A DNA stretch of 64,000 nt, taken from the IMG/VR virus record IMGVR_UViG_3300037455_000533, positions 998-64,997 of that record. One strand, 5' to 3'. Position 1 is the first letter of the stretch. Each line of letters begins with the position of its first letter. Origin of the DNA: a virus. Its lineage: Duplodnaviria > Caudoviricetes. Of this stretch, positions 21,018-62,661 are shown piece after piece. A model generated the notes under the pieces. It saw nothing but the letters and a program-made list of their open reading frames with translations. It searched no databases and had not been told where the DNA came from. A program made the translations under genes and the position numbers.

Positions 21018-21091
21018 GGCCTTGTGGCAGAGAAGTTATGCAGCGGTCTGCAAAACCGTGTACTCCAGTGCGATTCTGGGCGAGGCCTCCA
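21018..21091 (+). tRNA. tRNA-Cys(GCA)
   Basis: Acceptor GGCCTTG/CGAGGCC plus T-CCA; anticodon arm GCGGT-CTGCAAA-ACCGT; T arm TCCAG-TGCGATT-CTGGG. Confidence 0.92.
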
Positions 21092-21126
21092 TAAATATAC
21101 ACTCCACATTTAATGATATTTCCATT

Positions 21127-21156
21127 AAACGACCTCCATTCCCAGGGTCGTTTTTT
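21127..21156 (+). terminator. Intrinsic terminator after the tRNA
   Basis: AAACGACC/GGTCGTTT stem plus T run. Confidence 0.7.
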
Positions 21157-21183
21157 GGTTTTTAATTATGTTACAAATTATTA

Positions 21184-21212
21184 TTGACAAATAAGCATAG
21201 GTTTGGTATAAT
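21184..21212 (+). promoter_or_regulatory. Sigma70-type promoter of the early small-gene operon
   Basis: TTGACA-N17-TATAAT. Confidence 0.85.
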
Positions 21213-21307
21213 CATTTACAAGGTAAGGCAAGGCGACCTGCGGTAATGAGCAAAGGCCAACCGTCGAAAGAGCTAAGGGAAAGTTAATAAAGAGAGGAAC
21301 GATAAGG

Positions 21308-21574: not shown

Positions 21575-21589
21575 CATAGGAGGCATATT

Positions 21590-22147: not shown

Positions 22148-22156
22148 GGAGACACT

Positions 22157-24752: not shown

Positions 24753-26420
24753 ATGGAAAAGAGAAAGACGATTTATTACGAGTTCTGGAAGATTAAAGGC
24801 TACACTGACAGCCTTGTCCACACAGGCACTCGCACTGTAGGCTCAAACAACACCATCACAACAGGGGTAGACACTGTGCCAACTGCTACTATTACCATTC
24901 CTATGGAAGACTTACCAGCAGAGGAGATTAAGGACGGCAAGGAGCCTAACCTCTCTCTGTACAAGATTAAAATCTTCTACCAAGCAGATGGTATTCAGAA
25001 GTATGTGTTCGTTGGCACAGTCGACAGTTTAAGTCTTGATTATGCTCACTACACTTGTACAATCAATCTTTCTCACAACGTCTCCCGTATGCGTGAATGG
25101 GTTATGCCTACAGGTTACACAGTTAAGGAGACAACTCTTTCACACGTTGTTGGTGCTAACGGGGCAGATCTTGGATATTCTTCAACGATGGGCGATGACA
25201 CACAGACATACGAAGCACGTGTTAACTTTACCTATAGAGATGGCGTTGAGAACACGCCGATCGAGATGTCTTTCTCTTCACAGAACAAACTCGCAGCTCT
25301 TACTGAGGTGCTCAACAACACTGAGTCAGTCCACTTTGTTGTTGATTTGTCAAAAGAAGACACGATTATTCTTGGAAAGTTTGGCGATTTGACCCCTGTA
25401 CTTATATCACCAAATGCATATTATGAGGAAGAATGTGTCAACCGTGACCAGTCTAACTTCGTGACTATGCTTACTGAGCCAGTATATAACGTAGATTATA
25501 CTAACCACTTCAACCGTGCAGTTGTTTTCTGTGGTGATGTCGCTGAAGACATTATGCATATGACTCTTAAAGAAGTGTACAATGACCCATCGTTACAGAT
25601 TGAAGGGTTCCCCGTAGGTATGTACGACAACGAGATTAACCTTCAGCCTGAGGCACAGTGGAAGCAGAGTGATAGTTCAGACAGGGTTCATAACACTTCT
25701 AAGATTAATAATGAGAAGATCTATAAGAACTACGAAGTCGTTGCATACGCAAATAATGATAACCGTGAGTACTACGTTACAGACCAACAGCAACTCGATG
25801 AAGACGGAGTAATATATCACACGGTGTTTAATTTCACTGACCTTTATCCTATCCCTGAACTTGAACGCAAAGAGAACGAAGATGACGAAGACTCGGAAAC
25901 GATTGAGTACGCTATCACAGACGACGACAGAAAAGCAATCGTACAGAGAGCATACTGGCGTGCTATCCGTAAATTAAAGGCACAACGTCCAGAACACGTC
26001 TGGCAGTTTAACTCTACACCTTTGCCTTACAACTTCCAAGATGGTCAGAAAGTATCATTTTACTTCGTCAAAAAAGTCTCGTCACGTGACGGAGACTGTG
26101 AACAAGGAGAGAAAACTATCGTACGTATTCAGAAAGACTTGTATCTTACTAAGCGTACAATCACGTTCGATGAAGAGTTAAATGAGATTAACACAATCAC
26201 TCTTGACATAGAGATTCGTCCAAGAGATATTTCTGATGCTGAGTGGATTCTTAGGACTAAAGCACAGTCTAACAGCAGTAATACAACAACAGAACCTACA
26301 ACTATCCCTCTCAACGATAGCAACAGGTTCAATTATAACTTCAACGAATCTACCCGTGATGACGTTAGAAATAGTGCTGGTGACTATAACTATAGTTTGA
26401 ACACCAGCACTCGTGACTAA
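24753..26420 (+). CDS. Tail hub / Tal-like baseplate protein
   Basis: 555 aa, beta-rich; SFSSQNKLAALTEVL and YTNHFNRAVVFCG resemble gp27-type hub motifs; next to the tape measure gene. Confidence 0.55.
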   Translation: MEKRKTIYYEFWKIKGYTDSLVHTGTRTVGSNNTITTGVDTVPTATITIPMEDLPAEEIKDGKEPNLSLYKIKIFYQADGIQKYVFVGTVDSLSLDYAHYTCTINLSHNVSRMREWVMPTGYTVKETTLSHVVGANGADLGYSSTMGDDTQTYEARVNFTYRDGVENTPIEMSFSSQNKLAALTEVLNNTESVHFVVDLSKEDTIILGKFGDLTPVLISPNAYYEEECVNRDQSNFVTMLTEPVYNVDYTNHFNRAVVFCGDVAEDIMHMTLKEVYNDPSLQIEGFPVGMYDNEINLQPEAQWKQSDSSDRVHNTSKINNEKIYKNYEVVAYANNDNREYYVTDQQQLDEDGVIYHTVFNFTDLYPIPELERKENEDDEDSETIEYAITDDDRKAIVQRAYWRAIRKLKAQRPEHVWQFNSTPLPYNFQDGQKVSFYFVKKVSSRDGDCEQGEKTIVRIQKDLYLTKRTITFDEELNEINTITLDIEIRPRDISDAEWILRTKAQSNSSNTTTEPTTIPLNDSNRFNYNFNESTRDDVRNSAGDYNYSLNTSTRD

Positions 26421-29400
26421 GCTAACGCAATTCTGTTTGCGAGGCTCACGTATGAGCTTGCTGTTTGCGATGCGTTTCTGTTGTAGATGTTGATTTGGTT
26501 TCTTGAGCTTCTTTGGTTGTTGTTGACAGTGTTGCTCCAGTTTCGTGAGTTGTTCCAGCTGTTTGCAACTTTGCCACCGAGAGCACGGTATGCATATCTG
26601 AGGTCACCACGGTTAAGAGCAGCTAACACGTTGTTGCCAACTTTAGCGACACTCGACCTTCTCATTACGAACTCACCAGGTTGCAACATTGCTGGCACTA
26701 CATCTACGCCTCTTGTTCCACCACCAGCAGCACGATAGATTGGACGGATAAAGCCACCTCTTGCAAGGCCACCAGCGAGTGGGCTTGTATTCATTATCGT
26801 ACTCTGAGTTGTGAGTGGGTTTGTACTTGGAAGTGTTTTACCAGTCTTACCATCTTTATAGTAGAGATTGATATACCAATCTGCTTGCCATTTGCCGTCA
26901 ATGAACGAGAAGCCGTTAACGTCTTCCATCCATTTCTTAAACGTTTCATCGTTGAGGTCTGCGTATTTTTTATACTGACCGTCTTCTTCGACAAGAAGGT
27001 CAATCTTGAGCTCTTTGTGTGCCCATTTATCATACTCTTTGGTAAGGTCATTGAGTGTTTGGTTGAAGTTATTAAGTGTTTCTTGTGAGCCAAAGTCCCA
27101 ACCACCGTTAGCCTTGAGCCATCCTTGCCACGATTCAACGTTGTTGCCAAGCTCTTTCATAGTATCTTCATCGATTGTTAAGAGACCAGCTTTAACAAGA
27201 TTATTGACAATATTCTTGTATGTACCGAGGTCACTGCTTGTTATACCAGTTGTACCAGTGAGGCCTTGGTCTTTCCAGTCCATAAGGCCCATACCAACTT
27301 TAGACTTACCAATACGCTTGTAGTACACATTAACTGCCTCTTCCATATACTTAGCAGGGTTTTGTGCGAGCTCATTATCATTGATGCTATCGAGGTATTT
27401 AGCCATCTCTTCGTAAGCGTCTTCACTGTAGTCCTCGTATGGTTTGTAATCACCAGACTTTCTCAGGTTTTCCATAACGTTGAAGAGAAGGTCATTTTTG
27501 AGTTGGCTACGGTTAGCTTCTTGTGCTTGTTTGCGTGCTTCCTCTTCGGCTTTGCGTAGTTTGTCTGTTTCAGTAGCAAGGTCTTTGAATGCTTGTACAA
27601 GTCCACCAGCAAGAGCACCTAACGGTCCGAATGTCATAGCACCAGCTGCGACTGCCGAACCATATTCACCTAACTTAGATGTTGTGTCACCAAGTTTCTG
27701 ACCAAAGATCTTAGCCTCAGGTGCGATTGTGTTAATGAATGTTCCAGCAAGATTAGCCACACCTGAGCCGATGGTGTATATTGCTGCAGCGTTTCCAAGT
27801 TTGCCTACGATTGAACCAATCTTAGACACTACAGGTTGGAGTGTTGCTTTTACGGTGTTGCCCAGACCAACGTTCTTTACCTTCTCGCCAAATGTTAGAC
27901 CTTTCCAGTTTGAGAATTGTCCAGCAGAGTTGCGGAACGTATTTGCCTGTCCGTTCATATAGAACGTTGTGCCTTTTGCTCTGTTGAATACAGCATTGCC
28001 GTACATATTGTAGCCACTCATCGCTGGGTCTGAAGGGCTAATTCCAGCACTTCCTACGATGTTTTGGAATTTAGTAGCTTTCGCGTTCATTCTCTTTGTA
28101 GCAATACCGCTTAAAATACCGCTACCAGAGTTAATCATACCGAACAAACGACCTACGCCAGCGAGAGCATCACGTACGATTGAACCTAAGATCAACCAAA
28201 TCTTTCCCATAGGAGAGAGCATATAACCGAGAACTGATGCTGCCTTCTTCAAGAAGTCTGCATCAACATTCTTAAGGATAAACTTGATTGTGCCGACAAG
28301 GTCCTTCATACCAGCAGCAAAGCCATTGATGAATTCCTTTATGATATCCCAGAATTGTTGCCAGACTCCTCTGTTTTGCAAGAACCCGTTTACAAGGTCA
28401 GTGATACTCTTTCCAGTCGTATCTACACCAAGGGATTCAAATACAGTCTTAGCAGCTCCTTTGAGCGTTGCAATAATCTGTGTCATTCCCTCGCTGAGAC
28501 GTTTTCCAAGAGACTTCCAATCGATTGCTTTGAGCTTATCAAGTACGTTGCGGATAAATTTAGAGATGGCAGTGGTAAATTTATCCCATACTTCTGTATT
28601 ACTTGCCATCTTGTAGAATTGTTTGACAAGGTCAGCAAGGCCAGATTCAGTATAGATTGTCTCAAATGCGTTCGTACGAATCTCTTGGAAGAGCTGTTTC
28701 ATACCAGCAGTGGTATTGAGCATACGCTCAGAGATATTCCTTACAGGGCTATTTGGGTTCGTGTTAAGGTCAGCGAACATCTTGAGAATACTCTTTGCAT
28801 TCTGTGGAGTAATCTTAAGCTCGCCATCCTTCAAGAATTCTGATTCGCCCATAGCTTCGAGGGCTTTAGTCATTGCTGGGAGAGCACGGTTGAACTGGCG
28901 GACATCGATTGCTGTTGCCTTACCCTTAGCAATAACATCACGGATGTTCTTAACGACGTATTCCATCTCTGACGTATCGTTACCAGAGTATTGGATTGCT
29001 TTGAGGGCACCAAGTGTTGCATTGATTGCCAAGTTAGCATCACCACCAGACACAGGAGCAAGTTGTGAGACATAGTCTGCCAAGTCACCAGCAGTTACGA
29101 TTGGTGTCTTAAGAGCCTCAGAACGAACAGTCTTAAGCACCTGGTTTGCTTGGCCGCCGTAGAATGATTCAAAACCAATCTTAGCTTTTTCAAGTTTATC
29201 AAACTGTTCTGTACCTGCAGAGATAGCAGAAGTAAGCTGGTTTCTTAATTGACCAGTTAATTGCCTAATTCCATTTCTGAGATAGCCGAACAGGTTTTGT
29301 GCCTGAGAGCGGATTGTAGATGCGATACTTGTTACAGAGCCAACAAAGGCAGAGGTACGCTGGAAGACCTGCTGTAACACTTGTGTGAGTTTGCTAATCT

Positions 29401-31405
29401 TCTTTAAGTGTTCGATTGACTTTTGGTATCCAGAGTTCTGCTTATAGATAAGACCGTTAATCTCACGCTGTGTGTCTTGGATCTTACGCAAGGTACGGAG
29501 ATGTGCATCTTCGTTACCTTTGTTATTCATAGCTTGGCGATATTCACGCTCATACTCTTCGTTTAACTCTTGAAGAGTAATCATCTTCTTATCAAGCTCT
29601 GTCTTTTCCTTGCCATCATATTGAGCAAGCATATCACGGAAGCGTTTTTCATCTTTGAACCAACGTTCACGCTGTGCACGTCTCTCATCGTCTGCCTGTT
29701 TTGCTTTCTCGAGGGCTTGTTGGTATTGGTAAGCAGCAAGGTCAGCTTCAGATTTCTCCTTAGCACTCATAGAGCTAAGAAGGTTCATATATTCTTCAGC
29801 GTTATCTCTCTTTAACCTATCGAGTTTAGCCTCAATATCTGCACGCTTACGTACAGTTTTTTGTTCTTCCTTAATCTTGACTTCTTCAACTTTGGCTTTC
29901 TGCTTCTGTACTTCGTTAGGGTCAGCAATGCCAGTAGCCATACGGAGAGCTGCTTCACCGTATTTACGACGCTCAGCAGAGATGTTAGAGAACATATCTC
30001 CACCAAGAACTTCATCAGAGAATTGCTTAAGAGATGATGTATCTGTTTTAGCCTTAGCAAGACCGTTTTTGATACCTTCAGAGACACCGTCAGACACAGC
30101 ATTTCTGAACGTTTCTTTGACATCTTCTACGTAGATGCGTTCGCCGTTCTTACCATTCTTGTATTTCTTACCAGGCACGATGTTGCCATCTTTATCAAAG
30201 TTAAGCTCTTGATAGATATCGTCCTTCTTGCCACGCATAAAGTTGACGAAATCGACGCCAAGGTTATGTAGGTTATCGTTCGTACGACGGCTGTAAGCAT
30301 TATCACCACTCTTTTGTATGGTCTCAACAAACTTGCCGATGTTTCCAAAGAGCTGGTCGGCACCATTATTGGTAATCTCTACCTTGTAGGTGTTTGCGTT
30401 ATTCTTTATATTGTCTGCAATAGACGTAAGAGCACGGGCTATCTCTACGCTCGTAGCATTGTCACTGACCGCAAGTGCGTCTTTTCTCTCAAGGTTACGA
30501 GCGATACGTTTTCTTGAGTTGTAATCGTCTGCGACTTCATTATAGTCTGCTGCAGTGTAATTCTTTTTGATGTAAGCACGGCGGACAGAAGGGAGAATCG
30601 CTTTTGCGTTAGGGTTAGATGCGACGATCTCGTTCCATACATCATTTGCGAACTCGCCTTGTTTGTGTGCCGTGAGAACACTAACTTTGCCAAGCTGTAC
30701 AAAGTCAGCAATGACAGCTTTGAGTTTTGTATCGAGTTTATCCCACTGTCCAAAAGCAGTAGGGTCATTTTTCTTCAACCATTTACCGATTGAGTTAGCA
30801 TCAGCTTTGTCGGCGTTGAAGCCTTTGGCAATCTTTGCACTTTCACGGTAAGGATTTGCGTTTGAGATTTGTTTCTTTGCGTCGCCAATGGCAGCGTTGA
30901 TGATTTGTTGACGTTGAGCGTATGTACCGAGAAGGATATCGGTGAAGAAGTTATGAGACTTTTTATTTATTTTGTTAATGTCACCACCGACATTACGATA
31001 AGATGTAATGGCTTGGTTAAGCTCACCCATAATCTTAGCAATACCCTGGTTACGGATTTTGCCAAGTTTATCTGTAGTTATACCAAGAGCATCATTGAGG
31101 TTGCTAACATTTTTAGCGATATCACCAATCTGTGAGCTTATACCTCTAAGTCCGTCTTTCTTGTTACCATTAAAAATCTTATCAAGGAGATTCTTGATAT
31201 CAGTTATCTCAGTTTTAATAGTCTTAAGAGATACACTCTCAGTTGCTTTCTTAGCCTTTTTACCAGCTTTTTCTACGGTATTGCTAAGTTGCTCAGTAGA
31301 CTCATCAATCTCTTCAACATTATCTTTAGCTTCTTTGGCTTTTCTGATAAGATTGTCAAAAGCATCATTAACCATCTTGCCAGCAGCATCCGACATTTTA
31401 CTCAT
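26417..31405 (-). CDS. Tape measure protein
   Basis: 1662 aa, helical; core tape-measure domain (SEALKTPI...IRDVIAKGKATAIDVRQF); C-terminal ARGG...VPAMLQPGEFVMRRSSV motif. Confidence 0.92.
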   Translation of the reverse strand: MSKMSDAAGKMVNDAFDNLIRKAKEAKDNVEEIDESTEQLSNTVEKAGKKAKKATESVSLKTIKTEITDIKNLLDKIFNGNKKDGLRGISSQIGDIAKNVSNLNDALGITTDKLGKIRNQGIAKIMGELNQAITSYRNVGGDINKINKKSHNFFTDILLGTYAQRQQIINAAIGDAKKQISNANPYRESAKIAKGFNADKADANSIGKWLKKNDPTAFGQWDKLDTKLKAVIADFVQLGKVSVLTAHKQGEFANDVWNEIVASNPNAKAILPSVRRAYIKKNYTAADYNEVADDYNSRKRIARNLERKDALAVSDNATSVEIARALTSIADNIKNNANTYKVEITNNGADQLFGNIGKFVETIQKSGDNAYSRRTNDNLHNLGVDFVNFMRGKKDDIYQELNFDKDGNIVPGKKYKNGKNGERIYVEDVKETFRNAVSDGVSEGIKNGLAKAKTDTSSLKQFSDEVLGGDMFSNISAERRKYGEAALRMATGIADPNEVQKQKAKVEEVKIKEEQKTVRKRADIEAKLDRLKRDNAEEYMNLLSSMSAKEKSEADLAAYQYQQALEKAKQADDERRAQRERWFKDEKRFRDMLAQYDGKEKTELDKKMITLQELNEEYEREYRQAMNNKGNEDAHLRTLRKIQDTQREINGLIYKQNSGYQKSIEHLKKISKLTQVLQQVFQRTSAFVGSVTSIASTIRSQAQNLFGYLRNGIRQLTGQLRNQLTSAISAGTEQFDKLEKAKIGFESFYGGQANQVLKTVRSEALKTPIVTAGDLADYVSQLAPVSGGDANLAINATLGALKAIQYSGNDTSEMEYVVKNIRDVIAKGKATAIDVRQFNRALPAMTKALEAMGESEFLKDGELKITPQNAKSILKMFADLNTNPNSPVRNISERMLNTTAGMKQLFQEIRTNAFETIYTESGLADLVKQFYKMASNTEVWDKFTTAISKFIRNVLDKLKAIDWKSLGKRLSEGMTQIIATLKGAAKTVFESLGVDTTGKSITDLVNGFLQNRGVWQQFWDIIKEFINGFAAGMKDLVGTIKFILKNVDADFLKKAASVLGYMLSPMGKIWLILGSIVRDALAGVGRLFGMINSGSGILSGIATKRMNAKATKFQNIVGSAGISPSDPAMSGYNMYGNAVFNRAKGTTFYMNGQANTFRNSAGQFSNWKGLTFGEKVKNVGLGNTVKATLQPVVSKIGSIVGKLGNAAAIYTIGSGVANLAGTFINTIAPEAKIFGQKLGDTTSKLGEYGSAVAAGAMTFGPLGALAGGLVQAFKDLATETDKLRKAEEEARKQAQEANRSQLKNDLLFNVMENLRKSGDYKPYEDYSEDAYEEMAKYLDSINDNELAQNPAKYMEEAVNVYYKRIGKSKVGMGLMDWKDQGLTGTTGITSSDLGTYKNIVNNLVKAGLLTIDEDTMKELGNNVESWQGWLKANGGWDFGSQETLNNFNQTLNDLTKEYDKWAHKELKIDLLVEEDGQYKKYADLNDETFKKWMEDVNGFSFIDGKWQADWYINLYYKDGKTGKTLPSTNPLTTQSTIMNTSPLAGGLARGGFIRPIYRAAGGGTRGVDVVPAMLQPGEFVMRRSSVAKVGNNVLAALNRGDLRYAYRALGGKVANSWNNSRNWSNTVNNNQRSSRNQINIYNRNASQTASSYVSLANRIALA

Positions 31406-32775: not shown

Positions 32776-34095
32776 ATGGCAAGTAATGATAATAAAATAA
32801 GAGTCCAAAAGAGGTTGCTACAGTTCAACCAGATTCCTTTTGCGTTCGGAGAAGTGAATAATCCTTCTTATACTGCTACGTTCAAAGGTGAGGTCCAGAA
32901 CTACACTAACGCAGCCCACGGAGGTTATTATCCATCTTTGAATGACTGGGGTAAACTCCAGACATCTTCCTTTAGTGCTGATTTATCTTTTGATTTTACT
33001 GATATCGAATGCGAAGACAAGATACGCTACTTCCGCTTCATAAAAAGACAACTCTCAAAGTCTGGTAAACTATTCGCTACTCAAGGTGGTACAGAGATTA
33101 TCTGGACCAACGCTCGTGTCGTATCTATAAATGAGATTGTTGATGCTCCAAATGAGAAAGATATGTTCCGTCTTAACGTTACATTCGAACTTATTGATGG
33201 TTACTGGCGTATTGCTACCCGCACAAGAGCTTTCCTTTGTGAATATTGTCCAGCTCGCTTCAAGGATTTTGACCCTACATACTGCTTTGACGCTACTGAT
33301 TTCGTAGGTGCGTGTGACGAGACTGGTACATCTAAGTGTATCCCTTGTGAGATGAACTTGTATGAACCACCCACATACGAAGGTTGTGACTGGAAACCAC
33401 TCTGTAATTTCTCAAAGAAAGAGATTGAGTCTATGTTTGGTGTGAACTGTGCTAACAGATGGGCTATCAATTATTCTTGTGAACTTGAGAACAACTTCTT
33501 CTGTTTTGATGTGCCTTGGGGTAAAAAGTTTAGGCTCCGTGCTGATTCCAACTACAACACTACACACATCTCTCTCTGTTCTAAGACTGATTTTCCAACA
33601 GAGTTTGTACGTATCCGTCTATCTGGTGAGTTCTATAATCCTAAGATTTACTTTGTTAAGGATTATTCACTCTACAGCCCTGTTATCCCTGAAGGTAGCC
33701 CAGTGGCTCTTGGGTTATACGAGAAGACTAACGCTGGTGCTTACATCAAAACAACCGACAAGTGGCGTAACAAAGGAAAAACTTACTACGAATACACCCC
33801 AAATGATCCTACTTATGAAGTAATCGACTATGTTGTGCCAAAGGAAGATGCTCGTGTGAACATCAACGGTGTTATGACTATTGGATTTGGCCCTGAGATT
33901 TATTCTACTGATAACCCTCGTAGTGGAGAGAAGAACCAAGACGGTTCAGAAGCTACAGAGATTTCAACAATGTTCTCACGCTCGAACACACCTTACTTCC
34001 AGGTTATGCCTGGTATGAACGATATTGTTGTCGTAGGCAATCAAAAAGGCTCTGACGCATTTATTTACGTAGAGCCAGTTGAAGTCACTTGGTAA
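32776..34095 (+). CDS. Distal tail (Dit-like) protein with Cys-rich insertion
   Basis: Dit-like N-terminus (FRLNVTFELIDGYW) and C-terminus (YFQVMPGMNDIVV); about 13 Cys. Confidence 0.55.
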   Translation: MASNDNKIRVQKRLLQFNQIPFAFGEVNNPSYTATFKGEVQNYTNAAHGGYYPSLNDWGKLQTSSFSADLSFDFTDIECEDKIRYFRFIKRQLSKSGKLFATQGGTEIIWTNARVVSINEIVDAPNEKDMFRLNVTFELIDGYWRIATRTRAFLCEYCPARFKDFDPTYCFDATDFVGACDETGTSKCIPCEMNLYEPPTYEGCDWKPLCNFSKKEIESMFGVNCANRWAINYSCELENNFFCFDVPWGKKFRLRADSNYNTTHISLCSKTDFPTEFVRIRLSGEFYNPKIYFVKDYSLYSPVIPEGSPVALGLYEKTNAGAYIKTTDKWRNKGKTYYEYTPNDPTYEVIDYVVPKEDARVNINGVMTIGFGPEIYSTDNPRSGEKNQDGSEATEISTMFSRSNTPYFQVMPGMNDIVVVGNQKGSDAFIYVEPVEVTW

Positions 34096-35814: not shown

Positions 35815-36198
35815 TTATTCGGCTTTCTTAAATTTATGGACGACCTGTCCAGCTCTGTTAGTGTACGTCAAAGCCAGCAAATATTCTGCCTGCTTCTCAG
35901 TAACATAATAGTCGTGTCCAATGCTGAACGTACCTTTATAGAGTCCGTTTGGAGCATCCTCAGACACAAACTGGATAGTTTCGCTGGTTGTAACAACGTA
36001 TCCGCCTTTTTTACCTCTGCAGGTACTACAACCAGTACCAACAGCTTTCTTAGAACCACCACCGTAATATCTGATATGCACGAGAGCTTTGCCTTCCTCT
36101 GTCTTACCAGCGATTGTTGCTACAGTCTCTTTAGCACGGTTATCAGATACTACACGCTTAGTAGTACTATTCTTCTTAGCACAAGATGCACACCCCAT
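35815..36198 (-). CDS. Hypothetical CxxC protein, probably virion
   Basis: MGCASCAKK and GCSTCRG. Confidence 0.7.
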   Translation of the reverse strand: MGCASCAKKNSTTKRVVSDNRAKETVATIAGKTEEGKALVHIRYYGGGSKKAVGTGCSTCRGKKGGYVVTTSETIQFVSEDAPNGLYKGTFSIGHDYYVTEKQAEYLLALTYTNRAGQVVHKFKKAE

Positions 36199-37818: not shown

Positions 37819-37854
37819 ACCTTCATTATGGCACAACAGTTTATTTGTTTTTTT

Positions 37855-37992
37855 CACAAAAAATATCATCCGTCAGTGGATAACGGATGATATAGACACT
37901 AAACAAGCATCAATAAACAAAAATGGTTTTGAACAGTTTTCTTTGGTTATTAATGTTGTCGAACGAGCAGCTACAGCAAGACAGCTTCCCGT
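37855..37992 (-). ncRNA. Candidate ~140-nt small RNA
   Basis: TTGTAG-N17-TATAAT promoter; 11-bp terminator ATATCATCCGT/ACGGATGATAT plus U tract. Confidence 0.4.
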
Positions 37993-51710: not shown

Positions 51711-52865
51711 TTACATACCTGGGTTTGCGGTAACCTTTGGATAGCGTTGACCGATAACACCTGCGTTGACGAATCCATCGAGACCGCTGAGGGCGAGGCT
51801 GTCACAGATAGAGCCGAGCTTGACGTTGTTGATGAGAACGAGACCGTTCCAGTTAGTAACAACAGTCGTACCAGCGTTGTGCATTGTGATACAGTGGCCA
51901 CCACAGTCTTCTTGGCTGTCGATGCGTTTAACGTATGGGTTTGTAATATCACGGATGAACTTGATACCAACTTTGCTTGGATCGATGAGCCAGATTGAAG
52001 TTGTGTTATCTTCAAGGTCGACATCGACATAGCGAGAAGTGATGATGTTCATACCACGGTAAGAAACACCGTTAGCAGTGAGTTTCCATTCAGTGAATGG
52101 ATCGCTCTTGAGGTATGTACGAACTTCGTTCTTAAGGGTTGGCATAAGGATTGGGTTAATAGCGATGATGTAGTTACCAACGCTTTGACCCATAGCTGAA
52201 AGACGGCAATCAAGAGCCATAATGCTTGAAAGTACGCCTGCTGAGCCATCCATCTTCAATACACGGTCGTCGAGGAGACGTGAAAGAAGACCGTTGAATG
52301 GACGCATACCGTCACCAGAGAATTCTGGAGTACCGAGGATAGCGTTGCGTTCAAAGATGAACTTAGCATATTCAGCGACGAATTTAGCACGCTTTGCAGC
52401 GATTGATTTACCAGTTTCGCTCCAAGGCATACGGATATCAGAACCGTGTTGTTTGACTTCTTGTTCCATCATCTCATCGAGTGATGTAGCGACACAGTCT
52501 TTAACACAGAGCTCGTCGATTCCGAGTTTGTAGCGACAAGCGGTTACTGATGGGGTTCCAACACAACAACCTTGACCATCATCGTCGATTCCGACTGGAG
52601 TGTCAGTGATTGTGTATGGGGTCTGGATATAATATTTGTCCTTGCCAGACTTACAAGGATCAATGTAGATCTCTGCTGAACGAGCGACTCCGTTGTTGAC
52701 GAGAGCACGTACAAGACCATCAGGTTGTGCAGCAGTGCGGTTGATGGTTGCGTCGTGTTGGTCATCACGAATGCCAATAACGACAGTGTCGATGGCATTT
52801 GTGCCGAAGGAGTTCATAATCTCATTAAGCTCGATAGGGTTTTTACCTTCAAATTGGAAAGCCAT
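51711..52865 (-). CDS. Major capsid protein
   Basis: 384 aa, downstream of the protease/scaffold gene; FERNAILGT...PFNGLL and IIAINP match HK97-fold motifs; high-expression codons. Confidence 0.8.
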   Translation of the reverse strand: MAFQFEGKNPIELNEIMNSFGTNAIDTVVIGIRDDQHDATINRTAAQPDGLVRALVNNGVARSAEIYIDPCKSGKDKYYIQTPYTITDTPVGIDDDGQGCCVGTPSVTACRYKLGIDELCVKDCVATSLDEMMEQEVKQHGSDIRMPWSETGKSIAAKRAKFVAEYAKFIFERNAILGTPEFSGDGMRPFNGLLSRLLDDRVLKMDGSAGVLSSIMALDCRLSAMGQSVGNYIIAINPILMPTLKNEVRTYLKSDPFTEWKLTANGVSYRGMNIITSRYVDVDLEDNTTSIWLIDPSKVGIKFIRDITNPYVKRIDSQEDCGGHCITMHNAGTTVVTNWNGLVLINNVKLGSICDSLALSGLDGFVNAGVIGQRYPKVTANPGM

Positions 52866-52880: not shown

Positions 52881-54080
52881 TTATTTAAGGTTTGCGAACG
52901 CAGCACTGTATTCGTCTACGATTTCGTCACCTTCAGATTTTTCAGGGGTCGTCTTAGCATCACCTTCATCATTAGCAGGTTCAGCAGCAGTTGTGAACTC
53001 AAGCATTGATTCAAGCTTGTTCATAAATGCGTTCTTTGCTTCTGCTTTAGCGGAAAGTTTAGCTTCTAATTCAGCAATCTTTGCGTCTTTTTCAGCAATT
53101 TTTGCACGAAGTTCGTTGATTGCAGTTTCGAACTTCTCTGCTAATTCTGCTTCTCCATCGTCTGCAGAGACTTCTTCGGCAGGAGCCTCTTCAGGTTCGT
53201 CAGACGATTCAGCCTCTTCAACCTCTTCAGGTTCTTCGACTTCGTCTGCAGAAGCGTCGATTTGCTCTTCAGCTGGTTCATCAGCAACTTCCTCTTCTGG
53301 GGCTTCAACTGCTGGTTCTTCAGCAACTTCAACCTCAGCTTCAGGAGCAGCTACGACTTCAGCTTCTTGCTGGTCTTTTAACTCTTCTGGGTCCATAATT
53401 TCCTTTTCCGTCGAGGCTTTGTTTAAAAGTCCCTCGTCGTATGAGTTAGCATTCTTTGGGGAGTCAACCACAGCATAACCTGTGATTTGAATCTCGTCAA
53501 TGAGTGGAACTAGATAGTCAAAGTCTTGTTTGATACCAGTAATAGTACTCTGTTTGACGAATTCGTTTTCCTCGCTCCAGAACTCGGAGGAGATAGCTTT
53601 TCGATTACCCATACGCTTTAAGTCACGCACGGCGTAAAGTTCGTCGTCTAGCTTCACATTGACGTCGACACCGTATCTTCCGTCTTCTAATTTGACTAAT
53701 CTGAGGTCAGATTTAGTAAAAGTACCAAGATCAATAGAACGGTTGTGGTCTTTATCAATATTTCCAACGAAGTCGTCAGGTAATGAATTGTACCATTTCT
53801 TGATAACACCTTTACGAATTACAGCGTAAAGGCTACCATCGCCTTCAACTACAACACCTTCATCCAGAAGACGAACAAAATTATCATTTGTGCCATCCTC
53901 AAAGTCAACGGCTTTACCTGTGAATTCGAGCTGTCCAGAGACTCCTCCTTCGGCTTCGTATGCACAGCGTCTATCCCATTTCTTCTTGATAGCTTGGCGT
54001 TGGTTCACATTCTGACGAATCATACGTGAAAGTGCAGCATTGCTACGGTCTTTAAGTTTGTAATCGTTTTGTCCAAACAT
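52881..54080 (-). CDS. Prohead protease fused to acidic scaffold
   Basis: IDKDH, AISSEF and GYAVVDSPKN in HK97-protease order; Glu/Ala/Pro-rich linker and coiled coil. Confidence 0.7.
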   Translation of the reverse strand: MFGQNDYKLKDRSNAALSRMIRQNVNQRQAIKKKWDRRCAYEAEGGVSGQLEFTGKAVDFEDGTNDNFVRLLDEGVVVEGDGSLYAVIRKGVIKKWYNSLPDDFVGNIDKDHNRSIDLGTFTKSDLRLVKLEDGRYGVDVNVKLDDELYAVRDLKRMGNRKAISSEFWSEENEFVKQSTITGIKQDFDYLVPLIDEIQITGYAVVDSPKNANSYDEGLLNKASTEKEIMDPEELKDQQEAEVVAAPEAEVEVAEEPAVEAPEEEVADEPAEEQIDASADEVEEPEEVEEAESSDEPEEAPAEEVSADDGEAELAEKFETAINELRAKIAEKDAKIAELEAKLSAKAEAKNAFMNKLESMLEFTTAAEPANDEGDAKTTPEKSEGDEIVDEYSAAFANLK

Positions 54081-58114: not shown

Positions 58115-60412
58115 TTATATATCTTCCTCGATAATGAAAATTACACGCTGGTTACTATTCATAATCTGTTGGTTCAAGGTAGATGATGTATCGTCGACAA
58201 ACCATTTGTTACAACGGATGATGGTAATATCTTCCTCTCCATCAGATTGCTTGAGCACAACTGGAGCATTCTCCATAGCTGTAACAACGCTTTCTATCCT
58301 TCTTGTGTCAGCATCAAGGTCGTTCCAAGTGCCTTCAAAGTAGTACCAAGCAGATCCAGCCTGTACATATCCAGCTGATGTGTTGCTTTCATTAATAATA
58401 TGGAACACAGCAAAGTTTACAGTTTCAAAGTTCGTGTCTTCTACCCAAGTTGAACCGTTATATTCATATTTCTTTGAAGTTGATGTAACAATAGCAGTGT
58501 CGCCATTCTCTACTCCAGTTGTAGGCAACTCAGCGAATGTGCCAACAAGCCAATCGTCACTCTCTTGGAAGTGCCATACTTTGTTAAGCTCTTGAGCGAT
58601 ATAGTCTTTTACTGCTTTTGATGAGATAAGACCATCTGCGTCTTCCTCAACTTCTTGGAGAATTGTAGTCCAACCAATCTCACCAACATAATATTGGTCT
58701 TCGTTACCACTATTCACAAGATCTTGCTCTTTCATAGCACAGAGTACACAAGCAACAGCGTGGTCGAAGCGTAAGATGCGTGACCAAAGAGTTGCAAGTG
58801 TAGGGTTTTCTGAGTATGGGTCACAAAGCTCTTTTGAGGTTGGGTTAGCATAAATCTTCTTATTACCAGTTTTGAGAGGCTCGATTGCCTGGCAGAGAAG
58901 GTCAACAAGGTAATTAAGGTTGTCACAGATGTAGTTGTATGGATTCTCCATAAGAGGAGTCTGGAATTCCTTAATATCGCTTTGCCAAGTACCATCTTCT
59001 GTTTCAGTGATAAGGAGAAGCTCATATGTTACAAGGTTAGGGAACAAATCGTTAACATCAAAACACTTAGTGCCAGTGAGTGTAGTGAAGTCAGACTCAT
59101 CACCCAACTCCCATTCAATATCACCTTTCATACGGTAATATGCTTTAATATTTACTGGCTGGATTTCACTCTCGAAGTTATAACAGATATGTGAGGTCAC
59201 ATAATACTGGTCTTCTTGGAATGTTGATTCGATTGTAGTAAAATCTGCACTAGCGAGATGTTGGTCTGGTGTGCTGAACTGTACAACTGGGCCAACGTAA
59301 GAACCAGCAGTAGTAGTGGTTGTCGCTCTTACCTGATAACAGGTACTTGGATCGAGACCAGTAAAGTTGATAGTTGTACTTGTCTTCGTATTTGTATTGG
59401 TGCGTGTAGTCCAAGAAGATTCGTCACACTTTTTATATTCTACCCTTGTAGCAGGAGCGTAGACAGCACCACCATTCTGTATATTGAGTTTGACTTTACC
59501 AGTAGTAGCTGATAATGCCTCTTGGCTCGTAAGGGTATTCGTAGTTAACGTCACAAAATCACAGTTAGCAGTTGCAGTTTTGCTACCGTTAGACGATATA
59601 TATTTCACCCAGTAATGCGTATTTGGCTGTAGACCAGTTACGGTTGTAGATGCACTGTAGTTTCTACTGTTTCCACTGACAGATACGCTCTTAACTAACT
59701 GTGTCATACCTGAATCTTTGTAAAATTCAAATGTGACTGTACCACCAGCGTTAGGACGGGTAGCACCGAAGTCAGTAGTAATTGACATAACTGATGTACC
59801 AGCTGCACTTCCAGGAGCACAAGACGTAGATGAAATGGTCGGCTGGTCATAAATCCAGCTTCTTGTATTTCTGAATTGGACACCGAATAGTGCATTATCT
59901 GTCCAGACGTTGGTAGCACCTTCACTGCCATACCCGACAGCGTAGTTTGATACCCAGAGCATATCTTCTGTTGACGATGTTGCACCAGGGTTAACTGTAA
60001 AAGTATAGCTTGCTACGTTAAATTGGCCAGAAAGCCTGCCAGTGGTAGGGGCTGCGTGATAATCAAACTGCTTAGCGATAGAGCCATTCCTACGGTTACG
60101 GTAAATAATGTGGCGTGTGAAGTTATCAGCACCACCGCTTCCACTTACACTAGCGTCGACAGATGTGACTACGCCAGAGAGGTGAACCGTCATACGATTG
60201 TTAGCATCATACGTCAAAGTCCAAGATGGCTTGTAGTTTGTTCTAACGTCCTGACGCTTAGAAGTATTTATCTTGTTAACAAGAGTGAGAGCAACTGCAA
60301 TATTACCTGAAGTGCCAGTCTTATCAGTCCAGCCCATCACAGGGTTAATATCGAATGGTGCGATACCACCGTGAACGTTTGCAGTGTAAGTTCTAATTTG
60401 ATAATCAGCCAT
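58115..60412 (-). CDS. Virion protein with FN3-like repeats (start at MADYQI)
   Basis: TGLQPNTHYWV and TGLDPSTCYQVR FN3 signatures. Confidence 0.65.
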   Translation of the reverse strand: MADYQIRTYTANVHGGIAPFDINPVMGWTDKTGTSGNIAVALTLVNKINTSKRQDVRTNYKPSWTLTYDANNRMTVHLSGVVTSVDASVSGSGGADNFTRHIIYRNRRNGSIAKQFDYHAAPTTGRLSGQFNVASYTFTVNPGATSSTEDMLWVSNYAVGYGSEGATNVWTDNALFGVQFRNTRSWIYDQPTISSTSCAPGSAAGTSVMSITTDFGATRPNAGGTVTFEFYKDSGMTQLVKSVSVSGNSRNYSASTTVTGLQPNTHYWVKYISSNGSKTATANCDFVTLTTNTLTSQEALSATTGKVKLNIQNGGAVYAPATRVEYKKCDESSWTTRTNTNTKTSTTINFTGLDPSTCYQVRATTTTTAGSYVGPVVQFSTPDQHLASADFTTIESTFQEDQYYVTSHICYNFESEIQPVNIKAYYRMKGDIEWELGDESDFTTLTGTKCFDVNDLFPNLVTYELLLITETEDGTWQSDIKEFQTPLMENPYNYICDNLNYLVDLLCQAIEPLKTGNKKIYANPTSKELCDPYSENPTLATLWSRILRFDHAVACVLCAMKEQDLVNSGNEDQYYVGEIGWTTILQEVEEDADGLISSKAVKDYIAQELNKVWHFQESDDWLVGTFAELPTTGVENGDTAIVTSTSKKYEYNGSTWVEDTNFETVNFAVFHIINESNTSAGYVQAGSAWYYFEGTWNDLDADTRRIESVVTAMENAPVVLKQSDGEEDITIIRCNKWFVDDTSSTLNQQIMNSNQRVIFIIEEDI

Positions 60413-61559
60413 AATATCCTCTCTCTCTTGTAAAGTGTTCAACGTAGCGTCCTTGTCCCATCTTTACACAGTCTTCTTCGTCAATATCTGGGACTACCAT
60501 ACCTACAGAAGGAACAAAGATTGTCTCTGTCTCACCTTCTACCCAATCTGAATGTGCAGTGTATCCAGATGTAAGTTCATATCTTGCTCTCCATTGCATC
60601 TTCTTTTCTGGAATAACACAGGGTAATGTAATACAAGTCTCTTCGTTTTGGGTAGCAGTTGTCGATTCAGACTCAGCAACAGACCAATCTTGGCCTTCGT
60701 ATTTATATTCAACTGTAAGGTTAACTGTAGGCTGTCCACCGAGCTCGCTTGGTTTGAAACACAAAGTTACATCATCACAGTTCTCACAGACGTTTTCGAT
60801 CTGTTCTTCACGGTCGAATTCAGGAGGACAGAGTTTAAGCACAGGGATATCGAATGACAAGCCAGCAACATAAGATTTACCAGCCATACCAATATTACAG
60901 TTCAAATTATATCCGACGCCTTGCTGCCAGTGAGCGATTACCCAGATCTTAGCTGTGTTGCCATCTGTAGGTGCAACGTGACCTAAGTTCCAACTCTGGT
61001 CAGGTATATTACGTGCAAATGTCTGCCCGTCGCTTTTGCTAAACGCTGAGCCACTTCCGCCATACCAGTCAGCCCAGAGGCCTCTAGTGCCTCCTGGCTT
61101 GTTGCCGTATCTATCTACGACACAAGATGACCCACAACTTACACCAGCTGCATACCATCCCCCAAGACATTTGTGCCATTTGCTATCATTATCAGAAGGA
61201 ACGCTCTTGCTCGTTGTAACAGCGAGAGCAATCGCACGATATGCAGGGGTAGCATTGCTAATACTTCCGTACCACGGAGCAGTATATGCTCTTGTCGAGC
61301 CATACCTATCGCCCGTACCAGATGGGATAATCCTCAAGTTACGAATAGTTACGATAACTTCACCGTTGCTGTTGACGTCAGATGTAACTGTACCAACAAT
61401 ATTAGCCCTGAATGGGTAGAATTCGCCACTACGATAGACATTTCCGCCATCCCAACACACACCATATTGGTGGGTACCGAGTAATGGTGCTTTTTCGTTT
61501 ATCATCCTCAGTGGGTAGGATTCATTGCTTCCTATGAGTACGTCACAATCTTGAGCCAT
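60405..61559 (-). CDS. Cys-rich virion protein with FN3-like C-terminus
   Basis: VCENCDD; VEYKYEGQDW...QWRARY. Confidence 0.55.
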   Translation of the reverse strand: MAQDCDVLIGSNESYPLRMINEKAPLLGTHQYGVCWDGGNVYRSGEFYPFRANIVGTVTSDVNSNGEVIVTIRNLRIIPSGTGDRYGSTRAYTAPWYGSISNATPAYRAIALAVTTSKSVPSDNDSKWHKCLGGWYAAGVSCGSSCVVDRYGNKPGGTRGLWADWYGGSGSAFSKSDGQTFARNIPDQSWNLGHVAPTDGNTAKIWVIAHWQQGVGYNLNCNIGMAGKSYVAGLSFDIPVLKLCPPEFDREEQIENVCENCDDVTLCFKPSELGGQPTVNLTVEYKYEGQDWSVAESESTTATQNEETCITLPCVIPEKKMQWRARYELTSGYTAHSDWVEGETETIFVPSVGMVVPDIDEEDCVKMGQGRYVEHFTRERGYYG

Positions 61560-61563
61560 AATC

Positions 61564-62661
61564 TTATCCTGTAATGAATGTTAGTGTTATTTTGCCAGTT
61601 GTCGCAGGAACAGCCAAAGCGTCTGCTAAAGTTGCCCTTGTAGTGATAAGATATTCTTCATTCGTCTGTGCAACAGATTGAACTGCTTTGGCATAAATTG
61701 CTTCCAGTGCTTCTACTCTGTTTTCAAGATCCGTAAGAGACGCATCTAGCACCTGCCAGGTAGGAATATTGTTTGGAACTGCAGTTTCCTCGAAGTAGTA
61801 TAGAGCTTCTCCACTGTAGTAGCCGCTGTCAATATGGGTAGTTGAGAAGTTAGGAATCTCCCCAACGCCAATTACCTCTGTTTTCTTCCACTCAGCGTCT
61901 ACAGAATCATAAGTATAGATAACATTGAATTCGTGAGCATCGTTTTCTTTAACAAGACAAGTATCGCCATCAGCCATACCAGTAATGCTGTCCAGAGGGT
62001 AGTCGCCAGTACTCTCATTCTCAGCGTAATATGTGAATGAAGGGTGTTCCTCCCATAAGTGCCATACAGAGAGGACAGCGTCACGGACAGCTTTATACAC
62101 ACCATCACTCGTAATCGGACGGCGTGAGCTTTCTGTTGGGTATGTATCAGGGTTTACCCATACTGGGTAGCCAGTCTTCTGACAACAGTTCTCAGAAGGA
62201 GTCTCGCTAGGGTCGCTCGAAGGAGCACCCATCAAGACTTGAGGGTAAGTTCCACTTCTGAGCAACGCACTCAAGAAGGAGTCATAAGTACATAGGATAC
62301 AGGTTACAGCCTGTGCATACCTGTAAATTCTACTCCACATAGATGCGAGAGTAGGGTTATCATCAGTTTCAGAACATTTTGAGAAGTCATTTGCGAAGAT
62401 TGTAATCGCATTGTTTACAAGTACCGCTTCAAGGTCTTGTCTGATATCACATAGCAGACCTTGCAAGTCTTCGCAGTTGGTATGCCCATCATTGTCGAGA
62501 CCGACGTTCTCAGCCAAGTTCGTACACTGCGTACTTGTTAACGCAGGCACCAAATCAGCAGGAGCGATTTGCTCACTTCGCTCGAGACAGTCGTTATAAT
62601 CCCCGTCAAGTACTTGCGGAGCGACCTTCGGACAATTATTTGAATTATTGTTATCTGCCAT
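61564..62661 (-). CDS. Cys-rich virion protein, paralogous to the C-terminus of 58115..60412
   Basis: NPTLASMWSRIYRYAQAVTCILC versus NPTLATLWSRILRFDHAVACVLC. Confidence 0.65.
   Translation of the reverse strand: MADNNNSNNCPKVAPQVLDGDYNDCLERSEQIAPADLVPALTSTQCTNLAENVGLDNDGHTNCEDLQGLLCDIRQDLEAVLVNNAITIFANDFSKCSETDDNPTLASMWSRIYRYAQAVTCILCTYDSFLSALLRSGTYPQVLMGAPSSDPSETPSENCCQKTGYPVWVNPDTYPTESSRRPITSDGVYKAVRDAVLSVWHLWEEHPSFTYYAENESTGDYPLDSITGMADGDTCLVKENDAHEFNVIYTYDSVDAEWKKTEVIGVGEIPNFSTTHIDSGYYSGEALYYFEETAVPNNIPTWQVLDASLTDLENRVEALEAIYAKAVQSVAQTNEEYLITTRATLADALAVPATTGKITLTFITG

Follow-up and report, generated by a model that had tools for sequence, protein, structure and literature searches.

The window, i.e. 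the whole stretch of 64,000 nt analysed here, belongs to the 64,997-bp genome of an uncultured gut or rumen phage and carries the following features:

18067..20619, plus strand: portal protein (4 Cys/518 aa) and two tail-assembly-chaperone homologs (phrog_16496, Phage_portal)
21018..21091, plus strand: tRNA-Cys with anticodon GCA, discriminator U and encoded CCA (ARAGORN; Rfam RF00005, 49 bits)
26417..31405, minus strand: tape measure protein of 1662 aa, 0 Cys (weak TMP_3 match; similar to P087 gp73)
32776..34095, plus strand: Dit-like distal tail protein with 13 Cys (P087 gp74 homolog, E 6e-15)
34096-34779, 34779-35261, 35291-35806 and 35815-36198, minus strand: four small neck/tail-completion proteins with 5, 5, 7 and 4 Cys
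36198..37097, minus strand: head-to-tail adaptor, 14 Cys (phrog_16343 head-tail adaptor, E 2e-15)
37105..37869, minus strand: CHAP-domain lysin, 6 Cys (Pfam CHAP and PHROGs endolysin families)
47936..49324, minus strand: major tail (tube) protein, 8 Cys (phrog_14985, E 1e-55; tube position in P087, L032 and L034)
51711..52865, minus strand: major capsid protein of HK97 fold, 10 Cys (AlphaFold2 model and Foldseek)
52881..54080, minus strand: scaffold-like protein, 1 Cys/399 aa (position upstream of the capsid gene)
54080-54397, 54616-54906 and 54983-55486, minus strand: three small head-block proteins with confirmed CxxC motifs
58115..62661, minus strand: three larger Cys-rich late proteins of 775 aa (12 Cys, FN3), 384 aa (13 Cys) and 365 aa (11 Cys)

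PHROGs families matched by proteins of the window were 14985, 18907 and 16343, and the CHAP lysin hints at a Gram-positive host. Blastn and capsid tblastn searches of 50,697 phage records revealed no close cultured relatives, TerL was the sole query reaching P087-like phages, and a scan of reference genomes with the close capsid alignment found no prophages. Relatives were found in Holdemanella and Ructibacterium genome bins (tighter remote capsid set), and the relatives L032, L033 and L034 were retrieved with a peptide pattern that contained no cysteine at all. In blastp with proteins of phage P087 (Teubervirus P087, NC_012663) eight proteins of the window, including the adaptor, matched at E-values from 2e-24 to 5e-4 and made up a P087-like module. 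Homologous are TerL (24% identity, E 4e-24), tube (23%, E 2e-24), Dit-like (27%) and capsid (18%, E 2e-8) proteins, as well as portal, tape measure and Tal-like proteins. Since blastn and capsid tblastn gave no match at default thresholds and protein identities are limited to 18–27%, the window phage lies outside the genus Teubervirus, for which ICTV practice implies about 70% nucleotide similarity across the genome. The family as a whole ranges from Lactococcus phage P087 to uncultured phages of rumen, gut and oral samples. P087 has the gene order usual for such phages, whereas in the window phage the order is scrambled.

Cysteines of the virion proteins had been counted by eye in the earlier note on this DNA, and all its counts turned out to be exact: 10/384 in the capsid, 8/462 in the tail tube, 13/439 in the Dit-like protein, 14/299 in the adaptor and 0/1662 in the tape measure protein. 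CxxC motifs are likewise present in all eight further ORFs that it named (35291, 35815 with two of them, 54080, 54616, 54983, 58115, 60405 and 61564). Its remark that phage structural proteins are usually poor in cysteine agrees with phages lambda, HK97 and SPP1, where capsid, tube and adaptor/neck proteins contain 0–4 Cys (1, 1 and 0 in the capsids; 0, 4 and 0 in the tubes; 1–2 in adaptors or neck proteins). The median cysteine content of capsid proteins is 0.21% in reference phages and 0.51% in gut phages (preprint 10.64898/2026.07.03.736451), compared to 2.6% in the window capsid. The raw enrichment of the virion block over the rest of the genome is modest: 1.75% with the tape measure protein set aside, as against 1.36% for the replication block and a genome-wide 1.39%. 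The virion block contains 13 copies of the CxxC motif versus 3.7 expected from within-protein shuffles, and none of 2000 shuffles reached this number. In comparison with one diverged IMG/VR lineage the shell proteins kept 74 of 93 Cys (80%) with other residues 44% identical, while non-shell proteins kept 10 of 23 (43%) at the same 44% identity of other residues. The few cysteines of the portal and the chaperone homologs are not conserved in this lineage.

The AlphaFold2 model of the capsid protein (pLDDT 79, pTM 0.77) gave 343 Foldseek matches in PDB at E ≤ 0.001, and all of the matches listed are HK97-fold capsids or encapsulins (E 1e-9). The model and these matches assign the protein to the HK97-fold capsids, whose fold is defined by N-arm, E-loop, P and A domains and a spine helix; sequence profiles of the capsid and the adaptor gave no PDB match up to E 10. 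All ten capsid cysteines (71, 100, 101, 110, 120, 124, 220, 321, 325 and 354) recur in 93 homologs, the most distant at 42% identity, and cysteine is the top-conserved residue class (0.99). Nine of them persist in remote homologs with only 17–25% identity, and in an alignment of 37 sequences with a mean identity of 27% no column is invariant except C100, C101, C120 and C321. Thus, the entire family is marked by its cysteines. L033 and L034 possess all nine core cysteines, L032 lacks only C220 and C354, which are missing together, and P087 shares six capsid cysteines but, unlike the window capsid, has neither the C124/C325 pair, lost together, nor C110.

Such joint losses proved to be the rule for two pairs of positions. 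In the capsid set both C124 and C325 were present in 46 sequences, one of them in 1 and neither in 6 (Fisher p 3e-7), and the corresponding numbers for C220/C354 were 42, 3 and 8 (Fisher p 4e-7), though these statistics ignore phylogeny. Three apparent singletons of C220/C354 are probably alignment slips, because the cysteine sits one or two columns off. Losses of the two pairs are independent of each other and the replacements varied, C220/C354 being substituted by Arg/Asp twice. Pairwise loss together with Arg/Asp replacement suggests residues in contact, and the data fit C124/C325 and C220/C354 as contacting pairs, for which disulfides would be the best explanation. Such a co-loss pattern offers a coordinate-free way to candidate disulfide pairs in proteins of uncultured phages. 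C110 was lost singly nine times among the homologs; since the core set is odd (nine) and C110 disappears alone, some cysteines have no partner within the subunit. There is also a homolog that lacks C100 and C120 with C101 and C321 retained.

The eight cysteines of the tail tube (4, 36, 69, 74, 224, 241, 314 and 324) show a conservation of 99% or more among 118 homologs and again form the top-conserved residue class (1.00). The tubes of P087 (gp70), L032 and L034 match all eight columns at 23–29% identity. Along the sequence these residues make four adjacent pairs with no CxxC among them. In the protein atlas the tube protein has no more than leads to tube families; no Pfam family matched it in the Pfam scan, and a sequence search of PDB gave 0 matches even at E 10. 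In the adaptor, cysteine conservation amounts to 94% over 48 homologs with identities as low as 40%, second only to that of Trp. Thus the outcome that the earlier note had named as fatal for its idea, i.e. unconserved cysteines, did not occur in any of these three proteins. The adaptor contains the clusters CGCRPGCCHC and CCCLC (contexts VCGCRPGCCHCN and KGKCCCLCRRK); CC, CCC and CxC elements of these clusters sit in loops of the predicted model with pLDDT 57–78. Positions C98 and C178 vary together (Fisher p 0.0013). The model has weak fold matches to neck/adaptor chains, including neck chains of phage Milano at E 0.016–0.027. In databases the adaptor gene is called at 290 aa, about 36198-37070.

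In the Dit-like protein 12 of 13 cysteines fall within residues 155–268, including two CxxC 30 residues apart, and its relatives retain 11–13 of 13. The gp74-type gene directly follows the tape measure gene in P087, L032 and L034. The four small neck proteins, in the order of their coordinates, kept 4/5, 5/5, 3/7 and 4/4 Cys in the IMG/VR lineage at 25–55% identity. In the last of them (35815) 51 residues separate two CxxC pairs, a spacing suggestive of a zinc-ribbon-type site. Cysteines of the small CxxC head-block proteins are mostly retained in relatives, and searches with these proteins gave no hits to Pfam families, thioredoxin or Erv. For the larger late proteins partial homologs retain 5/6 and 4/7 Cys; the homolog search found none for the protein at 60405.

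An opposite trend is seen in proteins that are expected to leave the particle or to move. The product of 52881..54080, a putative scaffold judging from its position, has a single cysteine, compared with 1 and 0 in the L032 and L033 homologs and 0 in P087 gp62 (scaffold/protease, same position). The chaperone homologs at 19661 and 20305, similar to P087 gp71 and gp72, contain 0 and 1. The probability to have 0 Cys in 1662 residues of the tape measure protein by chance, at the 1.39% of this genome, is 8e-11, and in relatives tape measures of 1176–1617 aa also have 0, with one exception (6 in 1527). The absence noticed in the earlier note is real but nothing unusual: cysteine is also missing from lambda H (0/853), HK97 gp16 (0/1089), SPP1 gp18 (0/1032) and P087 gp73 (0/1309). 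Since this property is generic to siphophages, taken alone it is no evidence for a cross-linked particle, and as such evidence it was rejected.

The tRNA gene has a cloverleaf with the GCA anticodon and U73 as discriminator. That it is the sole tRNA, as the earlier note stated, was confirmed by ARAGORN on both the window and the 64,997-bp genome and by Rfam at the gathering threshold. The presence of tRNA-Cys in relatives, suggested there as a check, was also observed. In the IMG/VR lineage it occupies the same position, has the same CUGCAAA anticodon loop and differs in 10 stem pairs, where both partners have been exchanged and base-pairing is preserved; ARAGORN reports none there, and it is detected by Infernal and alignment. 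Two near-complete IMG/VR genomes and a third, 89%-complete one carry no tRNA besides it, and it persists between lineages with an adaptor identity of 38%. In P087 tRNA-Cys (GCA) is one of five tRNAs and is accompanied by cysK and a thioredoxin-domain gene, whereas the window phage has tRNA-Cys only. Tblastn with the P087 thioredoxin-domain protein and cysK found no counterpart in the window phage. The earlier note had seen no thiol oxidoreductase either, and Pfam scanning of 50 proteins gave no match to Erv, thioredoxin, glutaredoxin or Dsb, though small fast-evolving proteins could escape such a scan. The tRNA-Cys genes of the window, the IMG/VR lineage and P087 are too different for a shared ancestry to be shown. 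Retention of tRNA-Cys counts only as about two independent events, one in the window clade and one in P087.

Based on these data one can assume, with a probability of about 0.6, that an ancient and selected framework of cysteines cross-links the virion, most likely by disulfides, and that tRNA-Cys aids the supply. The interpretation of the earlier note, a disulfide-stitched or metal-stapled particle with tRNA-Cys serving late demand, is strengthened by conservation, by paired capsid losses and by tRNA-Cys in relatives, and loses the cysteine-free tape measure as an argument. The framework would comprise proteins of the mature particle (capsid, adaptor, neck, tail tube and Dit-like), with 0 or 1 Cys in those that leave or move (scaffold, tail chaperones and tape measure). 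In the capsid and the tube disulfides are the most likely chemistry, within and possibly between subunits, and because particles are put together in a reducing cytoplasm, bond formation would accompany or follow assembly or release. For the CxxC...CxxC modules of the 35815 protein and of the Dit-like insert zinc is more probable. Against disulfides speak the reducing cytoplasm, the anoxic rumen or gut and the search for an oxidase that found none, as well as predicted capsomeres of gut phages, where conserved capsid cysteines are mostly buried and isolated, favouring hydrophobic packing (10.64898/2026.07.03.736451). It should also be kept in mind that profile searches reward cysteine matches, so that retention of Cys in all homologs is partly a detection bias, which the cysteine-free search pattern and P087 offset only in part.

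Translation of late messages would be the step assisted by the phage tRNA-Cys, as virion proteins contain about 2.15% Cys by an estimate weighted with copy numbers. If it is so, tRNA-Cys and cysK would serve the supply of an amino acid abundant in the particle but rare in the host. Such a link between virion composition and “auxiliary” genes is absent from the literature searched, and it would change how these genes are read in viromes. A quite tenable, though in our opinion not the leading, alternative is that tRNA-Cys has nothing to do with the Cys-rich virion and replaces a cleaved or depleted host tRNA or serves general codon matching. Single tRNAs without a matching amino-acid excess occur in many phages. 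The same alternative is favoured by the dissimilarity of the three tRNA-Cys genes, by the genome-wide cysteine content of just 1.39% and by the codon usage, with 80% of cysteines encoded by TGT, a codon that GCA reads through wobble. It does not readily explain why this tRNA alone is kept at a constant position with compensatory stem changes, why distant P087 has tRNA-Cys together with cysK, and the estimated cysteine content of late proteins.

Returning to the proposed disulfides, two other states of the thiols were considered and found unlikely. The cysteines may mainly bind zinc, another metal or an iron–sulfur cluster within or between subunits. The 3.5-fold enrichment of CxxC in the virion block, the clean CxxC...CxxC with all four cysteines retained in the 35815 protein, two CxxC in the Dit-like insert and dense CxCxxxCCxC and CCCxC clusters of the adaptor are in line with such stapling; the invariant capsid cysteines are exactly four, and a reducing cytoplasm and an anoxic gut favour metal sites and hinder disulfides. 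Yet sites with three or four ligands are difficult to reconcile with capsid pairs that disappear two at once and independently, with Arg/Asp found twice in place of C220/C354, with the homolog preserving C101 and C321 after the loss of C100 and C120 and with the adjacent pairs of the tube, and scans for metal-binding families gave 0 matches. Improbable to a similar degree is a role of reduced cysteines in packing, as suggested for gut-phage capsids at large, their small, apolar and buried side chains being conserved because they stabilise the fold. In gut phages 83% of conserved capsid cysteines are buried, with only one thiol in disulfide range in 12 predicted capsomeres (10.64898/2026.07.03.736451), several cysteines of the window capsid lie in core beta strands or a helix of the AlphaFold2 model, and the habitat is anoxic. 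But packing predicts single losses to Ala, Ser or Val rather than the joint losses, twice to Arg/Asp; invariance above Trp and Gly at 17–25% identity is unusual for it, and loop clusters CC, CCC and CxC of the adaptor do not resemble core packing. Finally, a mere reflection of amino-acid usage in an anaerobic host, with no specific function, might account for the modest enrichment and conform to generally higher Cys in gut-phage capsids (10.64898/2026.07.03.736451), but it is ruled out by positional conservation, as 80–100% of shell cysteines are kept in place versus 43% elsewhere in the same genomes, and the framework is retained in dairy phage P087 too.

A bolder version of the disulfide reading, to which we give rather low credence, is a family-wide thiol/disulfide “chainmail”, where cysteine pairs act similarly to the isopeptide bonds of HK97, the particle hardens upon oxidation outside the host habitat, reduction or rearrangement at the host surface is needed to fire, and supply genes are recruited, tRNA-Cys in all members and cysK with a thioredoxin-like gene in P087. 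The cysK gene of P087 is expressed and sulfide raised the phage yield (10.1101/2021.01.05.425418), with no rise upon addition of cysteine (organosulfur study). In the case of “chainmail” this gene, so far tied to sulfide, would gain a structural purpose. P087 is cultured and easily grown on Lactococcus lactis C10, so that both the chemistry and the role of cysteines can be tested directly. Its host is an aerotolerant dairy bacterium, and its own adaptor has 11 Cys/240 aa. No link of P087 to disulfides was found in the literature searched, and the family uniting it with the window phage, as well as the connection of this family with cysteine supply, appear undescribed.

As a kind the idea is not new, although covalent stabilisation of tailed phages by cysteines has been shown in only a few phages since 2023. 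In phage Milano cysteine makes up 1.4% of all residues and 2.1% of those in structural proteins, and its disulfides were seen by cryo-EM (PMC10811340); the levels in the window phage are alike (1.39% and, by the copy-number estimate, about 2.15%). In the Agrobacterium phages Milano and 7-7-1 (PMC10811340, PMC10491603) cysteines are conserved in the clade and capsid, neck and tail are cross-linked, but neither phage has any sequence relation to the window family. Milano, a myovirus, infects an aerobic Gram-negative bacterium; the disulfides of its sheath and baseplate were resolved by cryo-EM, and its contraction needed DTT plus guanidine. For PD491P1, a Parabacteroides gut siphophage, a disulfide network stabilising nearly the whole virion is reported (Cai et al., Structure 2026;34:942, as cited in PMC13576161). 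It represents the candidate family Paboviridae with 43–46 kb genomes and Bacteroidales hosts (PMC10773633) and has no detectable sequence similarity to proteins of the window. Features of this kind of phages, i.e. cysteine enrichment in structural proteins and clade-wide cysteine conservation, are both present in the window phage. Stable cross-linked capsids and tubes may be of interest for gut phage therapy and protein nanomaterials.

The gut-phage capsid survey (10.64898/2026.07.03.736451) described conserved cysteines in A and P domains of the HK97 fold; with a median of 0.5% Cys, capsids with at least 6 Cys were no commoner in gut than in reference phages. The window family differs from this background in its 2.6% of cysteine, in paired losses, in the extension of the feature to the whole particle and in reaching a dairy phage. 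In the siphophage tail tube of the gp39 type (PF08813) inter-ring disulfides are present and conserved cysteine pairs add stability (PMC13576161). Two cysteines are found there in one branch of the family (about 14%), whereas the tube family of the window phage has eight invariant ones.

Judged from the alignments, the main result is conservation of the cysteines in the virion shell of this phage, whose parts were assigned by means of PHROGs, Pfam and folding. The window, which has a G+C content of about 41%, covers 64,000 bases of a single-contig virus record 64,997 bases long, and neither a nucleotide nor a capsid-protein match to it was found among 50,697 deposited phage genomes. The parts assigned are:

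18067-19623, + strand, portal
26417-31405, - strand, tape measure
36198-37097, - strand, head-to-tail adaptor
37105-37869, - strand, CHAP-domain lysin
47936-49324, - strand, 462-aa virion protein in the tail-tube position
49558-51285, + strand, large terminase (TerL)
51711-52865, - strand, HK97-fold major capsid protein

The cysteine counts made by eye in the earlier note were exact: 10 in the 384 aa of the capsid protein, 8/462 in the tail tube, 13/439 in the Dit-like protein, 14/299 in the adaptor and 0/1662 in the tape measure; a CxxC motif is present in every reading frame for which it was claimed. In the virion block 13 such motifs were observed versus 3.7 in within-protein shuffles, and none of 2000 shuffles reached 13. 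Raw cysteine enrichment of this block is modest (1.75% without the tape measure, 1.36% in the replication block, 1.39% overall). For the counterparts in lambda, HK97 and SPP1 the counts are 0-1 (capsid protein), 0-4 (tube) and 1-2 (adaptor or neck proteins). According to a recent preprint, the median cysteine content of capsid proteins is 0.21% in reference phages and 0.51% in gut phages, while those with at least six cysteines are no commoner among the latter (10.64898/2026.07.03.736451). The tape measure without cysteines, to which the earlier note had also given weight, was counted correctly but loses its value as evidence, since it is equally cysteine-free in lambda, HK97, SPP1 and the cultured distant relative Lactococcus phage P087, as well as in nearly all other relatives; as a general rule for siphophages, this absence alone proves nothing. 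What is notable is the contrast within one particle between a cysteine-rich fixed shell and the components that leave or move (scaffold, chaperones and tape measure), which have no cysteines.

The shell cysteines are conserved, as the idea of a stitched particle requires. All ten capsid columns are 96–100% cysteine across 93 homologs (100–42% identity), which makes it the top-conserved residue class (0.99 versus 0.86 for Trp). Each of the eight tail-tube cysteines is at least 99% conserved in 118 homologs with 98–53% identity (class value 1.00 versus 0.69 for Trp), and the 14 of the adaptor have a mean conservation of 0.94 in 48 homologs down to 40% identity. When 1.8 billion representative proteins were searched with a profile, this gave 53 near-full-length capsid relatives with only 17–32% identity, in which nine of the ten cysteines persist; in a 37-sequence capsid alignment with mean column identity of 27%, C100, C101, C120 and C321 are the sole invariant columns. 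Because profile searches favour cysteine matches, relatives were also sought by a cysteine-independent route. A peptide pattern devoid of this residue led to three loci, located in genome bins of Holdemanella and Ructibacterium: two of their capsid proteins have all nine core cysteines and in the third only C220 and C354 are missing, lost together, while both tail tubes found inside these loci keep 8/8. One diverged IMG/VR lineage served as an internal control. Compared with it, 74 of 93 cysteines (80%) are retained in the shell set at 44% identity of other residues, and 10 of 23 (43%) in the rest, such as TerL, portal and chaperones, again at 44%.

P087 was reached through TerL, and its proteins match the TerL, portal, capsid, adaptor, tail tube, tape measure, Dit-like, Tal-like and tail-chaperone proteins of the window. 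Its capsid protein has seven cysteines, six of them in window columns, and its tail tube has 8/8 in window columns at 23% identity; the adaptor contains 11/240 and the Dit-like protein nine, while the scaffold (0/346), chaperones and tape measure (0/1309) contain none. The two genome-bin loci extending past the capsid gene have 11 cysteines in the capsid protein, 16-17 in the adaptor (6.8–6.9%), 8-9 in the tail tube, 21 in the Dit-like protein (5.8–5.9%), 0-1 in the scaffold-like protein and 0 or 6 in the tape measure. Since P087 and these loci repeat the same picture, the framework is old and family-wide, and it occurs beyond gut habitats too. A 3-kb contig from a human oral metagenome encodes an adaptor homolog (33% identity) and a CxxC...CxxC neck protein with 4/4 cysteines kept; because of its oral origin the clade extends beyond rumen and gut. 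All known or binned hosts of the family are Bacillota, and the CHAP lysin of this phage fits a Gram-positive host. The remote members (L032 in the Holdemanella bin, L033 and L034 in the Ructibacterium bin) are found in bins of gut Bacillota; L032 lies on a 156-kb contig and may be a prophage. Its tape measure is the sole one with cysteines, 6 in 1527 aa.

In the remote capsid homologs C124 and C325 are both present in 46, both absent in 6 and split in 1 (Fisher p 3e-7, phylogeny ignored), and for C220 and C354 the numbers are 42, 8 and 3 (p 4e-7, likewise ignoring phylogeny), the three splits being probably alignment slips, as a cysteine stands one or two columns off. The two losses are independent of each other. 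C124/C325 are both missing in P087, C220/C354 in L032. Replacements vary (T/T, H/S, Q/T, S/T; I/I, Y/A, L/A, F/T, M/L), and Arg/Asp takes the place of C220/C354 twice. Such co-loss is classically seen where two residues touch each other directly, though it is not proof, given that C110 was lost singly nine times and the core capsid set is odd in number. Co-variation is also found between C98 and C178 of the adaptor (p 0.0013), and the tail-tube cysteines form four sequence-adjacent pairs, 4/36, 69/74, 224/241 and 314/324. Based on this data we favour, with a probability of roughly 0.6, the view that disulfides cross-link the capsid and tail-tube proteins and that the CxxC...CxxC modules probably hold zinc. 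Metal stapling is unlikely: these modules are of the kind it would use, but independent two-cysteine units suit the co-loss better than a four-ligand metal site. Buried free thiols seem just as improbable in view of the paired losses. The main difficulty for disulfides is redox, namely a reducing cytoplasm at assembly, an anoxic gut or rumen and no oxidase found in the proteins scanned, which agrees with the absence of a thiol oxidoreductase reported earlier. Disulfide bonds may form on air exposure between hosts; alternatively, assembly itself may drive their formation.

Phage Milano (PMC10811340, PMC10491603) and some tail tubes (PMC13576161) are established cases of disulfide networks, another is reported for gut phage PD491P1, as cited in PMC13576161, and cysteine enrichment of gut capsids has already been surveyed (10.64898/2026.07.03.736451). 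No sequence relation of the window family to the solved examples was detectable, and nothing in the papers searched connects P087 with disulfides or tRNA-Cys with cysteine-rich virions. Therefore, within an already known kind, this is a family of its own, marked out by the cysteine framework; one of its members is cultured, and a supply link is possible.

This link concerns tRNA-Cys(GCA) at 21018-21091; ARAGORN, run on the full genome, and Rfam both confirm that there is no other tRNA. The co-occurrence of tRNA-Cys in relatives, which had been proposed as a check, was found in three IMG/VR genomes and P087. Of four related IMG/VR genomes, one is an 80% fragment; the other three each have a single tRNA, placed as in the window behind the chaperone homologs and close to the Tal-like gene. 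ARAGORN misses it (L022:1501-1575, L023, L024), while Infernal with the Rfam tRNA model scores 49 bits. It has the same CUGCAAA anticodon loop, U discriminator and encoded CCA, and aligns as a clean tRNA-Cys cloverleaf in which both bases of ten stem pairs have changed and still pair. One of five tRNAs in P087 is tRNA-Cys GCA, and P087 also encodes, at 1897-2133 and 6185-7120 in its genome, a 78-aa thioredoxin-domain protein with CxxC at residues 10-13 and a cysteine synthase. Its cysK is transcribed and translated, and phage yield is raised by sulfide, its substrate, not by added cysteine; the published discussion concerns sulfide rather than virion composition (10.1101/2021.01.05.425418). 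With P087 proteins as queries, no cysK or thioredoxin homolog was found in the phage of the window. Its particle is estimated to contain about 7,600 cysteines, or 2.15% of residues, assuming 415 capsid and about 370 tube copies. For tRNA-Cys, a role in cysteine supply would be plausible. The three tRNA-Cys genes (window, IMG/VR lineage, P087) are too dissimilar to show common origin.

Gene order in the window (17569-26420, +) is scrambled versus the canonical order of P087, L032 and L034. The portal, the Tal-like protein and the two homologs of tail chaperones (gp71 and gp72 in P087) lie on the opposite strand beside tRNA-Cys, far from the tape measure. The CHAP-domain lysin gene (37105-37869, -) is directly upstream of the adaptor gene within the virion block, an unusual location for an endolysin, and its product could be virion-associated. 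Inside the tail module, on the opposite strand, 43520-44221 (+) encodes a 233-aa protein with a strong phrog_7999 and a weak Stealth_CR2 match, which may be an inserted gene of sugar-phosphotransferase type; its cysteines are not conserved (1/6 kept). TerL reading frames of six relatives (L003, L006, L007, L008, L016, L019) have 1145-1214 aa, about twice the 575 aa of the window TerL, and that of L033:1607-4108 has 833 aa. They align with it in parts only, which suggests an intein-like or other insertion.
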